The notes beneath the pieces are model-generated. The model did no database searches and had not been told where the DNA came from. It was given only the letters and a program-made list of their open reading frames with translations. Of a stretch of 64,000 nt of DNA, positions 38,457 to 43,580 are shown piece by piece. The translations under genes and the position numbers were made by a program. Numbering within the stretch: the stretch's first letter is position 1; every line of letters starts with the position of its first letter. The stretch is taken from NCBI GenBank assembly GCA_010356995.1, contig ML996708.1, positions 372,001 to 436,000 of the forward strand. Direction: 5' to 3'. Origin of the DNA: Trichodelitschia bisporula (Eukaryota).

Positions 38457-40133
38457 CTACAAAAAACTAATCCCCACCCCAAAACTAACCCCCTTCCTCG
38501 CCTCCTCCCCCCGTCTAACCGCAACCGGCAGTGAAAAATTGACCTCAAACCTCGCCAACGGATGCGCATACACAATCCCCACCCCCGCCGCCCAACTCGG
38601 CATCCCGTCCCCAAGCCTATGAACCGTGTCCCGCATCCCGCGCGCCACAGCCGCGCTGTCCATTTCCTCGCCCTTGCGGCCGCGGAGACCGAGAAGCCGG
38701 CCGCCGTTTGCGAAGAGTTGGAGACGGAGAGGGGTATCTTTGCCCGTGCGCGGGAAGGGGAGGAGGAGCGAGGCGCCGCCGGCGGCGTAGACGTCGCCGC
38801 CGAGGGCGTCGCCTGCCTCGTGCGGCCCCAGCCCGGAGAGGTGGAAGCCGCGCACGTCGGTTGGGCCGCCGAGTTGGAAGCGGTCGTTGATGCGGCTGGG
38901 CTGCGGGCGCGATGCGGACCCGATGGCAAGTGGGTAGAGCATACCCGCACGGAAGCCTGCGGTGAGTGACACGCCCGAGTCCAAGCCAAAGCCAGGCACC
39001 GGCACCGGGACCGCGGCCGCTGACTCGAGCTCCACCTTCGCAAAGCCGACATCGCCGCCCAGGGGCCCAAAACCCGCGAGCTCAGACACCGTCTTCAGCA
39101 AATAACCGCGGCTCGGCAGGAGTGGATAATCGCGTCTTTCCGCAATCCACGTATGCGCAATCGCCGACTTAAACGTATCGCCCGCATCAAGGCGCACACT
39201 CGGCGCTGCATTCTTCGCCACACCTGTAATCTGCCGCCACACGCCGGAGTACCCAATCTCATGCCTATGCCCACCAGGCGAAAGCCAGCGCAGCTTCGTG
39301 CTGCCCCCAGAAAGGCGCTCCTCGTGACTGGCCCAGGGCTTAAGCGTCGAGCTTACGAGCCCGCCGGCTTCGAAGCGCAGGTCTGGGTTGCTGAGGACGG
39401 GGGAGTCGAAGAAGGCGGAGTAGGCGCTTTTGGTGCGGGTACCGAGGGAGGCGTGGGCGTTAAGCGATTCGGCGCCGCCGAAGAGGTTGCGCAGTTGCAC
39501 GTCGGCGTAGGCAGACCCTTCGGAGTGGCCGGCTTCGGTGCCGGTTTTAACGGTGTATTTGCCCCGCTCTTGGGCGGAGAAGTAGACGGTTAGGTCGGTG
39601 GGGGAGGTGGAGGGCTTGGTGGGGTCGGCGACGTCGACGTAGGCGGAGATTGGTGACTTGTAGATTCCTGTGCTCTGGTTAGGGGACTTCGCGACTGCGG
39701 GCGAGCGTCGTACCGAGCTTCTCCAGTGACGTAGCGACTCTCTGGATTTCCTGCCGCGCCTCAAGTAGTGTAATGGGCTCATCGCCGTCGGCCTTGATCA
39801 ACGGCTTGCATATCCTCTCCAGGAACGTCCGACGAGTAGTGCTCGCGTGCAGCACACGCACTTCTGATATCGTGACTGGAAGTGTGTTGTTGTCGGCAAG
39901 CTGCTGTTGTTAGCGGCATCCGACCATCGTAAAGCATACGCACAATCGACGCTTCCCTCTGCTGCTGGTTCACATACTGCGCGTGAAGGCGGCTGACGAG
40001 TTCCTGGTCCTGCTTCGCCTGCTCCGAGGCTTGCGCCGTCTTCTTCAGCGAGTCGAAGATCTGAGAATGGCCAATTAGCAATGCCCAGAGCAGAAAAGGC
40101 CACGCTCACGTCGTCCTCTAGAGGAGAAGCCAT
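38457..40133 (-). CDS. SAM50: Mitochondrial outer-membrane SAM complex core subunit (Omp85 family); 4 exons
   Basis: POTRA region; RNLFGGAESL; DRFQLGGPTDVRGF; DALGGD; C-terminal beta-signal GVSFGVGISFL; three canonical introns. Confidence 0.96.
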
Positions 40134-40620
40134 TGCAAGGGCGGTTTACAGCTCCTGGAGCTGCAGCGGCGTGGGATGTGTGGGTGTTTGTGCCTCCAAA
40201 TCTCTTGAAGCCGGAGAAAAACGCCGCAGGCCGGGAATGACATCGGAGCCCAGCGAGCTGGCCAGGTACGGGTACGTGTTGCCAAGGCCTGGCGCGACGA
40301 CCTCACCTCTCGCCTCGTCTGGTCTCGACTCTTCCCCCCTTCTCTACCGGTATCTCCTTCAAGCATCTCAGCCACATCATCATGAGTGCACAAAGATACA
40401 CTGAATCTGCCTTGGACCCTCCAATTAATCATCATGTACGGATGTATCGCGAGGGAGACATGTTCCTCCTTGCGCCAATCATCGCCCTACATGATATTTG
40501 TACCACCTCTGGCGCTGAGGCTGAGCCGCGCCATGTCCTTCCTCCCGTAGCTACATAACTATGGCAATACACGCTGAACTCCTCTGGAGTTCGGCTTCCT
40601 GAACTTTACACTCTCTTTCA

Positions 40621-42490
40621 CTGGACCCTCTCTCAATCACCGCCAGCATCGTCGCCTTAACGGGGACCTGCCTGCGGAGCGCGCAATTCCTAACCAAGCT
40701 CCGCAACCTGTACAAAGATGCCGAACTCACGATTACCGCCATGAGCACCGAGTGCACCGTCATCAGTGCCTCGTTGTCTCACGTCCAGTCCTTGGTGCTC
40801 AAAATCCCAAAAGACCGCTCCGCGAAGCTGCAAGCGCTGCATTCGACGCTCGAGACGGCGTTGGCGGGATGCATGGTCGCTGTTACCGTGCTGGAGCAGG
40901 AGCTTGAGAAGCTGGTGCCAGCAGATGAGGTCAACTGGCTCGCGCGTGCGAAACTGGCATGGCAGGACGAGAAGATGAAGGAGTTACTCGCGCAGCTGCA
41001 TGGCCAGCAAAGCAGCCTCACATTGCTAACTCAGTTGCTCAGCTTGTGGGTGATTCCCTATGTAACAGAATGCCTTACTAACACACCAAAGGGAGTCGCT
41101 AGCAGCAGTCGAGGAAGGCGTAAAAGACACAGCGAACATAGTCGCCGAAATGAGGAGCCGGACTGCCCAAATCAGAATCTCAAATCCTGACGTCCGCGCC
41201 CCCGGATCCATCTTCGAAGTGGATTCCGATGTGCGGACCATTACACGAGCCAGGAATCGGGCGAGCTTCGCCCAAAATTCAGTGATCGGATCATCGATAT
41301 TCGAGTTTGACGACGAAGTGGTCGATCCCTTAGTCTATCGCAAGGCTCTCATGGCCGCGCGCCAACAGCCGCAGTCAGAGCACAACCTCCTAAAGAGCGA
41401 ACTCCGACAGCCAGTGTCGACTACAAAGTCGCGCCGGCGCCAGCAGCCAGAACTGGGTGCCAAGCTCAGGGGAATCGCAGAAAGCGGGACTACCTTCATA
41501 GATCTATTTCGCGAACGCACTGCTCCCAAGGATCGCCCCTCTCCTAAATCGAAACGCCTATTTGTATTCCAGGACAAAGCCCCGCCAGATCCGTCTCGGG
41601 ACGAACGGCTGAAGAAACTTCTGAGCGAATCGAAAAGGATCGCCGATATAGCCGTTGCCAGGAGAGATTTGATCTACAAGATTCAGGAGCATGCAAAGGG
41701 GGACCGCCCGTACGTCATTCAAGTGCTTATGCAGGATCCACAGGCAAAAGAAATTCTTGATATCAACTCCCCCGACATCCCCTACGACAAGGATATCATC
41801 GAGCGTGGCGGTACGATGCTACACCAAGCCATCTGGATGAGTGACTTCGACCTCGTAGACACTCTTTTGACGTGCGGTGCTGACCCCTTCCGGCGGGATG
41901 CGGACGGCAATCTGCCAACGGCTATGGCGACTGACGAAGAGCGCGTCATATACTGGGAATCAGCGTGTTGCAATGCAGCGGCAGCCATAGGACCTGTGAT
42001 GCACAAGTTGCTTGAGCACATGTATCGTTGCGCTCAAGGACATCCCCCGATGATAAGTTTTGCAGGCTACATGTACAGGCGAACCGGTGGTGGGGAATTT
42101 GAGGAGGAATGGATTGATCTGCAGCGGGATGTTCTGAGTGCATATCCTTCAGCAGGTAGGTGGCCGTATTTAATCTCGCAGGGGCTGCTGACATTGCCAG
42201 AATCCGCAGGTCTGATACGCTGCGGAAGGGTTGACATGGTGAACGTAATCGATGTCAGACTCGACGACAACGAATCCCCCTCTATCCTTACCATAAAGAT
42301 GGCTGTCATCGGCAAGACACCATGTGATCACCTGGATTGGAGCACTTTAGAAGGCCGAAGACGAATATCTCGCCGACTGTGGAGCAGTTGGGAGGGAGAA
42401 ACAACAAATGTGACGTCAAATCTACGGATCATCACGTGCCAATGCCCCGACACCCGACGCCGAAATAGAAGGCTTAATAAGCGGCCGTAG
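40621..42490 (+). CDS. HeLo-like (fungal STAND N-terminal) domain fused to an ankyrin repeat and PH-like region; begins with CTG (non-AUG start or decaying gene); introns 41046-41091 and 42156-42200
   Basis: CTG-DPLSITASIVALTGTCLRSAQFL..YKDAELTITAMSTECTVISASL..RAKLAWQDEKMKELLAQLHGQQSSLTLL. A phase-2 intron joins ORF 41150..42490, which has FEFDDEVVDPLVYRKAL and ankyrin GGTMLHQAI..LLTCGADPFRRDADGNLP. Confidence 0.75.
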
Positions 42491-42746
42491 CAGCCACGTT
42501 GATTGGCAGATCGGGGTCCGATACTCGTGTCACCTTGTCCGCTCCCACGCCCCAACTCCCAAACGTCCCCCATCATCCCCTCCAGCCGCCTCAATCCTCA
42601 ACTTCGTTTCTTCACCGTCGGCGTCGCACCGTCCCAAACGCCCTCCATCAGGGTTCCGAATCCCGCGCCTCACACTCCTTCAACCCTCGCTCCTCCACAA
42701 TCAAACAACCACTTCATCTCCATCTCCCTCATCATCAGCCTCCCCA

Positions 42747-43580
42747 ATGGCCACCCCCACCGCAACAAAGCGCCTCACCCGCGAATACAGCGCCATAACC
42801 GCAAACCCCCCCCCCTTCATCACAGCCCACCCCTCCGAAAACAACATCCTCGAATGGCACTACATCCTCACCGGCCCCCCGGACACCCCCTACGACGGCG
42901 GCCAGTACTGGGGCACCCTCACCTTCCCCCCGAACTACCCCTACGCCCCGCCCGCCATCCGCATGCACACCCCCAGCGGGCGCTTTCAACCGAGTACGCG
43001 GCTCTGCCTCAGCATTTCGGATTTTCATCCTAAGAGCTTTAATCCCGCGTGGGGTATTAGCACGATCTTGAATGGCTTGTTAAGCTTCATGACGAGCGAC
43101 GAGATGACCACGGGCTCCGTCCGCGCCTCGTCCCAGGAGCGCAAGATCTTCGCCGCGCGGACGCGGTGGTGGAATAGCACCGGTGGTGGGTCCGCCGACC
43201 GTGCGCCCGCCCCGCTGGACGCAAATAACCGTGGTGTCGGCGCGATTCGGAACGGAGACGGGGGCGCGCGGTTCAGGGCCGAGTGGCCGGAGGTGGATGG
43301 CGAGAATTGGGAGTATATGGCGAAGCGCGGGATTGATCCGGCGACGGGAAATGTGGTCCCGCGGCAGCCGGGTAGTGTGTCGTGTACGCCGGCTGCGAAT
43401 GCGTTGAGGCGGCGGCCGACGAATAGTGGGGGTGGGGCGGGGGGGGTGGTTGGCGGGGCGCAGGTTGCGCGGGATGCGGGGGAGGGGTGGATGAGGCGGC
43501 ACAAGTATTTTGTGGGACTCGGGGCGCTGTTTGTGTATGTGCTGCTTACGAGGCTGTTTGCTGAGGGGAGAGTGAGTTGA
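42747..43580 (+). CDS. UBC6: ER tail-anchored ubiquitin-conjugating enzyme E2 (UBE2J2 type)
   Basis: ATKRLTREY, NILEWHY, TPSGRFQPSTRLCLSISDFHPKSFNPAW; C-terminal TM segment. Confidence 0.96.
   Translation: MATPTATKRLTREYSAITANPPPFITAHPSENNILEWHYILTGPPDTPYDGGQYWGTLTFPPNYPYAPPAIRMHTPSGRFQPSTRLCLSISDFHPKSFNPAWGISTILNGLLSFMTSDEMTTGSVRASSQERKIFAARTRWWNSTGGGSADRAPAPLDANNRGVGAIRNGDGGARFRAEWPEVDGENWEYMAKRGIDPATGNVVPRQPGSVSCTPAANALRRRPTNSGGGAGGVVGGAQVARDAGEGWMRRHKYFVGLGALFVYVLLTRLFAEGRVS

Follow-up and report, generated by a model that had tools for sequence, protein, structure and literature searches.

An expressed gene of Trichodelitschia bisporula combining a putative HeLo-like domain with an apparently Osh1-derived ankyrin-PH segment

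The gene analyzed here occupies positions 40621-42490 on the + strand of a 64,000-nucleotide (nt) stretch of the genome of Trichodelitschia bisporula, a fungus counted among dung saprobes (PMC7082219); "the window" means that whole stretch. The explanation that we favor, with a probability of roughly 0.6, is that it is expressed and belongs to a small, lineage-restricted set of chimeric fungal genes, a family whose T. bisporula copy has strongly drifted. An N-terminal four-helix domain of the PF17111 type, together with a middle extension, would have become fused to part of an Osh1 duplicate, presumably in one capture event and at the DNA level, intron included. The captured fragment would have comprised the central helix, the C-terminal ankyrin (ANK) lobe, the linker, and the PH domain, with no first ANK lobe, no FFAT region, and no lipid-transfer ORD. 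A preliminary description of this DNA, made from the sequence alone, had proposed a HeLo-like executor domain fused to an ankyrin-PH module of Osh1/Swh1 origin; the peptide strings that it quoted are all present in + strand frames at 40621-42490.

Transcription was assessed with contigs of two public sequencing runs of one sample, X1 and X2, which carry the label 'RNA?' and are not recorded as RNA. Over the 5.7 kb compared, the contigs skip five short GT..AG or CT..AC intervals, three of them in a minus-strand SAM50-type gene and two in the gene under study; because five introns are missing, the contigs derive from RNA. They differ from the window at no base, and a single contig is unbroken from 40326 to 43427, passing through both joints of the gene. 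The joint from 41045 to 41092 was seen in both runs and removes intron 1, and the second joint removes 42156-42200, with GT..AG ends (the cut being placed at +3). Because both introns are skipped, the two halves lie on one spliced transcript, which joins the N-terminal exon to the rest; the preliminary description was thus right both in proposing the 45-nt intron and in treating the halves as one gene. The spliced frame from 40621 runs through 592 codons with no stops, against 31 and 17 stops in the remaining two frames, and a 592-codon frame stayed open in none of 2000 shuffles of the bases.

The public model of the locus, EJ06DRAFT_524959 (P0001, 419 residues), was the sole match in a word-based search with the 465-residue C-terminal part and is 100% identical to the present translation across the shared part. 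It spans 40741-42230, starting at the internal ATG at 40741 (MSTECTV...), and its last intron, of 188 nt (42022-42209), shifts the frame, so that the protein ends ...LEHMSDTLRKG; a frame-shifted end of seven residues is the outcome, versus 140 further codons with the 45-nt intron. No joint for the 188-nt intron is present in the X1 and X2 RNA contigs, although such contigs drop rare forms and it may represent a minor isoform. The public model is probably wrong at both ends.

Descent of residues 302-455 from Osh1 is supported by sequence comparisons of several kinds. A HMMER scan of 1.84 billion representatives gave 586 matches at E values up to 0.001, and the best 150 were examined. Among these 150, most were multi-repeat ankyrin proteins with totals that sum many small matches. 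Thirteen of the 150, chosen for having few matching stretches and a long best stretch, were run against Pfam together with two multi-repeat controls: 9/13 carried Ank and PH, one of these (P0023, 1251 residues) also carrying Oxysterol_BP; three were short Ank-only fragments, one (P0003) had no family, and both controls were pure ankyrin arrays. With Osh1-type proteins, the spliced residues 302-536 align to Osh1 residues ~214-447 in a single colinear stretch (~235 residues, 59-68 bits, independent E values of about 1e-13 to 1e-14 at a library size of 1.8e9), with identities of about 25-30%. The homology starts at Osh1 residue ~183-214, thus including the C-terminal ANK lobe only and not the complete bi-lobed ANK, and the protein ends 56 residues past the end of the alignment at residue 536. 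A sequence search of the PDB returned the Osh1 ANK chains 5h28 and 5h2c with 30 bits in one stretch (chain residues 164-253), compared with 10-12 bits per repeat for designed ankyrin repeat proteins (DARPins). Residues 302-455 alone scored 63 bits in phmmer, a value reached by none of 300 shuffles, and tblastn with the Osh1 protein P0023 matched 41558-41992 (E 1.6e-15). The earlier proposal that the ankyrin part is preferentially Osh1-like is borne out by the colinear scores and by the PDB comparison. Oxysterol_BP (PF01237) itself gave no match at E values up to 1, nor up to 10.

An AlphaFold model of the ANK-PH part was made from a 43-row, Osh1-rich alignment, with an input that carried 15 intron-coded residues. 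The ankyrin lobe was predicted with a pLDDT (predicted local distance difference test) of 89-97. Searched with this lobe, Foldseek placed Osh1 ANK structures at ranks 1-3 and 5 (E 1.5e-3 to 3.7e-3), and VIA placed 5h2a_A at the top (Z 12.2, root-mean-square deviation 2.5, 113 residues aligned, chain 152-274).

The second intron provides a line of evidence from gene structure. Eighty fungal Osh1 loci were collected from metagenome contigs, of which 60 could be scored by the motif ..L[SN][YF]Y[KR][HNS]Q in PH strand b3 and 20 were unmatched. A GGT directly follows the Q codon (..YYKHQ) in 28/60 loci, and the remaining 32 are continuous; in 24 of the 28, a 45-85-nt GT..AG intron of phase 1 restores [DE]D[AT]G[ST]ACRG. 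Intron 2 of the T. bisporula gene (GCA G/gt...ag/AA TCC) interrupts the aligned codon in the same phase. This shared position and phase constitutes good evidence for derivation of the segment from an Osh1 gene through duplication of DNA, in agreement with the captured piece postulated earlier, and it indicates that the sequence after intron 2 descends from a PH domain. As a separate observation, fungal Osh1 genes are polymorphic for a phase-1 intron after ..YYKHQ (28 with, 32 without), and this polymorphism accounts for the many Osh1 fragments predicted in protein databases that stop within PH.

Residues 456-540 would accordingly be read as a degenerate PH remnant, in view of where they lie, of the shared intron, and of two relatives in which the PH start is clear. 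A hidden Markov model of 55 distinct Osh1 PH segments scored 5.6 bits, compared with a shuffle maximum of 5.5 (0/2000 shuffles as high), and an Atlas search gave a weak lead to PH-type clusters (score 0.81, recognition 2066, under the 2300 mark). The T. bisporula sequence reads ..AGYMYRR...EEEWI.. against ..KGYLKKW...LRWF.. in Osh1; the basic residue of strand b2, which is part of the phosphoinositide-binding signature, is missing. Because acidic residues stand where Osh1 has its basic b1-b2 residues, the PH part probably no longer binds phosphoinositide.

The N-terminal domain (residues 1-141) plausibly deserves the HeLo-like label, judged from its sequence, although the assignment is below threshold and dependent on a non-AUG start. 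PF17111, which currently bears the Pfam name 'PigL_N', is equated with HeLo-like in PMC9815663, where HeLo and HeLo-like effector domains are called pore-forming, Helo_like_N matches are related to the MLKL executioner bundle, and the first helix is stressed. By Atlas features, 26 of the 30 nearest clusters belong to the PF17111 set (PF17111 and SesA clusters; score 0.97), which is a lead only. A single-sequence AlphaFold2 model of the domain has four long helices (pLDDT 71), and BLASTP matched the domain to residues 343-463 of a Lasiosphaeria miniovina protein, P0279 (E 1e-12). As the preliminary description had noted, there is no NACHT or NB-ARC, neither giving a Pfam match at E values up to 1, nor up to 10.

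In one respect the N-terminus differs from that description, which had placed a methionine in front of DPLSIT: the codon there is CTG, and the first in-frame ATG encodes residue 41. The CTG aligns with position 1 of the PF17111 profile, and the profile match begins at position 2, with the next residue. A protein begun at Met41 would be without the first helix of the domain. The GC content at third codon positions (GC3) of the 40 codons before Met41 is 0.78, compared with 0.77 in the rest of exon 1 and with 0.75 and 0.78 in the housekeeping neighbors, the GC content being 0.51 in the leader and 0.49 in the introns; because their GC3 is like that of the neighbors, translation includes, or until recently included, the codons before Met41. 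Filamentous fungi are known to initiate at CUG (PMC5487733), and at 40621, with T at -3 and G at +4, such initiation is a possibility. The leader also contains, at 40382-40558, a 58-codon upstream open reading frame (MSAQRYTESALDPP...), along with six more upstream ATGs.

The gene is not unique to the T. bisporula genome. Its middle region is common to three other proteins: P0278 (74 bits), a Joint Genome Institute (JGI) environmental cluster of four sequences (346 residues) labeled 'ankyrin repeat protein'; P0003 (61 bits), likewise environmental and from JGI (334 residues); and P0279. In P0278 and P0003, an Osh1-type ANK lobe and the start of a PH come after the middle region, colinear with the T. 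bisporula gene, and P0278 matches the window in one high-scoring segment pair over 41090-42160 (E 1e-38). Their ANK-PH is far closer to Osh1 than the T. bisporula copy is; Pfam gave P0278 a PH match of 25.8 bits against a cut-off of 25.1 and an Ank match of 21.1 bits. In a quick tree of the ANK-PH region, P0003 and P0278 form a clade (Shimodaira-Hasegawa-like approximate likelihood ratio test, SH-aLRT, 99) nested within an Osh1 group to which a Cryomyces fragment also belongs, and the label 'HeLoANKPH' needed two changes. The P0003 and P0278 models lose sense at the position of intron 2, and because they are bounded by the intron 1 and intron 2 positions, they appear to be truncated predictions on intron-bearing genes. 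P0279 (695 residues) has the N-terminal domain and then the middle region at residues 343-560, behind ~340 unrelated residues; Pfam found no family in it, and neither ankyrin nor PH, and it could be a fused gene model or another architecture of the same module.

Within the family, conservation is highest in S[IV]F[ED]FDD[EQ]VV..x.YRKAL, an acidic-aromatic motif at 41300-41345 (residues ~212-226) in the middle region; it is present in P0003, P0278, and P0279. The FFAT consensus is EFFDAxE, and a reading of SIFEFDDEVV as an FFAT-like VAP-binding motif was dropped, as it fits about three of the seven positions. Homology searches detected no relatives of the linker, residues 237-301. A metagenome scan with an alignment of the middle region gave 598 pattern matches, none of which was confirmed, the DNA of P0003 and P0278 being absent from the collection scanned.

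A number of observations weigh against the reading favored here, and those on the captured part are considered first. The single repeat found by PF00023 has an E value of 0.018 and scores 15.8 bits against a cut-off of 21.1, and every Ank model fell below its Pfam cut-off; the phmmer matches to solved ankyrin proteins and the high-confidence model nevertheless favor an ankyrin fold. Generic ankyrins came within about 1 Z of the Osh1 chains in VIA; for this reason, and because the alignment behind the model was Osh1-rich, the predicted structure agrees with an Osh1 origin and is no proof of it. Such results, and the multi-repeat ankyrin proteins that top the raw match lists, would be expected of an ordinary ankyrin-repeat protein whose Osh1 likeness arose by chance or convergence and whose two halves are an artifact of gene prediction. 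We nonetheless consider this explanation hardly credible, since the generic totals are sums of 10-12-bit repeats as opposed to one long stretch for Osh1, the intron position and phase are shared with many fungal Osh1 genes, P0278 and P0003 exist as intermediates, and the RNA contigs join the exons.

The PH part is the weaker portion of the captured segment. Pfam found no PH (PF00169) in it and no match at all on exon 3, and a PDB sequence search with the last 185 residues returned no PH, only three chance-level matches. Alone, the PH part scored 4.8-6.3 bits to Osh1-type proteins, and residues 456-592 scored 4.8 bits, a value equaled in 2/300 shuffles. The last 52 residues, for which no Pfam family was found, scored -0.2 bits (119/300 shuffles as high). 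From the PH start onward the AlphaFold pLDDT was below 50, which the 15 intron-coded input residues may have worsened. GC3 falls in the 5' to 3' direction from 0.78 to 0.50, the PH-like part (0.51) and the tail (0.50) being at the non-coding level. The PH domain of the preliminary description is therefore upheld weakly, by position, shared intron, and two relatives, and not by Pfam, score, or model. The T. bisporula gene stands on a saturated branch of the quick tree (length 10) that gives it no placement, and P0278 and P0003 match its ANK part with scores no higher than those of true Osh1s. Given the saturated branch, the ANK-PH part by itself does not demonstrate a common origin with P0003 and P0278. 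Moreover, the P0003 and P0278 models begin at the intron 1 position, so that any N-domain exon lies outside them.

At the 5' end, the PF17111 match (E 1.2e-5, profile positions 2-127 of 209) reached 25.3 bits, short of the gathering cut-off of 27.2, and 17.5 of these bits are carried by the first 40 residues alone. Residues 41-141 (40741-41044), like P0001, had no PF17111 match in the Pfam search, and because the match vanishes without the first 40 residues, the PF17111 call depends on sequence preceding Met41. Hence, the HeLo-like domain of the preliminary description is retained as a plausible profile match that is below threshold and has most of its signal ahead of the first ATG. Among the matches listed, fold searches (Foldseek and VIA) with the single-sequence model found generic helical bundles only, and no HeLo or MLKL. 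The full domain has no ATG in front, and so does not open with the initiator methionine of PF17111; an in-frame TGA (40600-40602) lies seven codons upstream of the CTG; and the leader has seven upstream ATGs (40382-40561), including an in-frame 13-codon upstream open reading frame from 40561.

These features of the 5' end are also those that would be left in a transcribed relic, i.e., a once-functional chimera decaying after its ATG changed to CTG, which yields no useful protein and owes its RNA to leftover transcription between housekeeping genes. The non-coding GC3 level of the last 137 codons, the unrecognizable PH part, the saturated branch, and the continuation of the RNA contig into the UBC6 gene would all fit such a relic. 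We regard it as the less probable account, if one to be taken seriously: the 592-codon frame has neither stop nor frameshift (0/2000 shuffles), both introns have canonical signals and are removed, the ankyrin lobe is predicted with high pLDDT, and the segment before Met41 keeps the family consensus along with its coding-like GC3. The intact long frame, spliced introns, and confident ANK lobe argue against a long-dead gene, and the lost ATG, the upstream reading frames, and the degenerate 3' part argue for a weak or waning function. Any loss would be recent, because deep divergence without one stop implies translation for most of the history of the gene.

On the favored explanation of a drifted family member, the Osh1 piece would originally have given the N-domain protein a membrane or organelle address through its PH and a protein-binding surface through its ANK lobe. 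In the T. bisporula copy, the ANK lobe still looks foldable, the PH would have degenerated, and the canonical ATG would now be CTG, so that the product may be either a low-level full-length protein initiated at CUG or a protein started at Met41 and without the first helix. Either product would probably serve as an adaptor or regulator, weakly expressed, and not as a primed cell-death executor.

The preliminary description had suggested a lipid or small-GTPase sensor or an integrated decoy. In that case, the Osh1-like module would mimic Osh1 or sense a lipid or small GTPase, and its disturbance would free the HeLo-like domain to permeabilize membranes without a NOD. A class described as pore-forming in fungal NLR systems (PMC9815663) is indeed joined here to a fragment of a conserved host protein, and the relatives keep a much better Osh1-like ANK-PH. 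However, nothing observed speaks to decoy action, sensing, or cell-death activity. The gene lacks the ORD and keeps only half of the ANK of Osh1; in this copy the PH part is degenerate, and no ATG precedes the first N-domain helix. The locus showed no NLR, amyloid motif, or partner gene, and PF17111 is also found in ordinary non-immune architectures. The suggestion thus went unsupported, and we consider it improbable. It is similarly doubtful, as a broader conjecture, that this gene, P0278, and P0003 constitute a NOD-less surveillance or targeting device placed at, or mimicking, the contact-site and Golgi phosphatidylinositol 4-phosphate (PI4P) locations of Osh1, with a HeLo-like domain that fires or is regulated on perturbation and with CUG and upstream reading frames throttling the T. 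bisporula copy.

Among the closest known systems is Osh1/Swh1, the oxysterol-binding protein homologue of fungi, with the architecture ANK-PH-FFAT-ORD (ANK structures 5h28, 5h2a, and 5h2c; P0023 is an example). The T. bisporula gene shares with it, in colinear order, the end of the first ANK lobe, the central helix, LDINSPD, GGTLLHEA..GADPFRRD, the linker, and PH strands b1-b5, together with a phase-1 intron at the same codon and a predicted fold that superposes best on the C-terminal Osh1 ANK lobe. Unlike Osh1, it has no ORD (PF01237), FFAT region, or first ANK lobe; its PH part has degenerated, and it carries a foreign N-terminal domain and middle region. Binding of Nvj1 reportedly needs the bi-lobed ANK (Manik et al., 2017). 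The Osh1 ANK is described as bi-lobed and as binding Nvj1 in PMC6363164.

PF17111 (HeLo-like/PigL_N) proteins offer a second comparison, sharing an N-terminal helical domain with the consensus start DPLSITASIVAL.., four predicted helices, and ankyrin-type repeats thereafter; protein L of the Monascus pigment cluster has this order, with an N-terminal PF17111-type domain and then ankyrin-type repeats. The T. bisporula gene differs from them in its sub-threshold score (25.3 versus 27.2 bits), in having CTG for the start ATG, and in the absence of NACHT/NB-ARC and of any C-terminal amyloid motif seen, and its ankyrin part appears to be specifically Osh1-derived and is followed by a PH remnant. 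The four-helix executioner domains of HET-S, HELLP, and MLKL possibly belong to the same broad fold class as the N-domain; a difference is that no ATG precedes the first helix in T. bisporula.

The features of the gene are collected in Table 1. Its neighbors are, as stated in the preliminary description, of the SAM50 and UBC6 types, being an Omp85-family and a UQ_con gene. The SAM50-type gene lies at 38633-40135 on the - strand, with RNA-confirmed introns at 39667-39712, 39901-39943, and 40061-40109; in run X1, the contig of its transcript joins that of the 40621-42490 gene without a break, the divergent 5' regions overlapping or abutting. On the other side, RNA contigs run gapless from the stop at 42490 into the UBC6-type gene (window 42491-43427), which has its ATG near 42747. 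This contig reflects either overlapping untranslated regions or read-through, and a two-gene contig does not show a single transcript.

Table 1. Features of the chimeric gene and its leader in window coordinates
Feature	Position	Strand	Remarks
Transcribed 5' leader	40326-40620	+	Reach of RNA contig (X2 record 5 continuous 40326-41045)
CTG at the presumed ancestral start-codon place	40621-40623	+	Precedes DPLSIT; no RNA base difference
Exon 1, N-terminal helical domain, putative PF17111/HeLo-like type	40621-41045	+	Below Pfam threshold
First in-frame ATG (residue 41)	40741-40743	+	Start of public model
Intron 1	41046-41091	+	46 nt, GTGGGT...CTAAC...AG; RNA joint; also in public model P0001
Conserved middle region, residues 143-236, motif SIFEFDDEVVDPLVYRKAL	41093-41374	+	Common to P0003, P0278, P0279
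Basic proline-rich linker, residues 237-301	41375-41569	+	No alignment covers this stretch
Apparent Osh1-derived segment, residues 302-455	41570-42031	+	End of first ANK lobe, central helix, C-terminal ANK lobe, linker helix
Sole ankyrin repeat detected by Pfam (GGTMLHQA...GADPFRRD)	41807-41899	+	PF00023
Putative PH-like remnant, residues 456-540, split by intron 2	42032-42331	+	Aligns with Osh1 PH strands b1-b5
Intron 2	42156-42200	+	45 nt, phase 1, GTAGGT...CTGAC...AG; RNA joint
Basic C-terminal tail, residues 541-592, and TAG stop	42332-42490	+	No relatives found

Within the library searched, no paper pairs HeLo-like with oxysterol-binding, and none combines HeLo-like, ankyrin, PH domain, and fungal. 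With respect to annotation, the public gene model is corrected at both ends. A conserved start that has lost its ATG provides a case in which CUG initiation, or else the recent death of a gene, could be tested in a filamentous fungus. Should the family be functional, fungal HeLo-like domains could be coupled directly to a module copied from a conserved lipid-transfer protein and not only to NLR or amyloid signaling, and the family would be a concrete, testable example of a domain captured through duplication of DNA that retains the parental intron.

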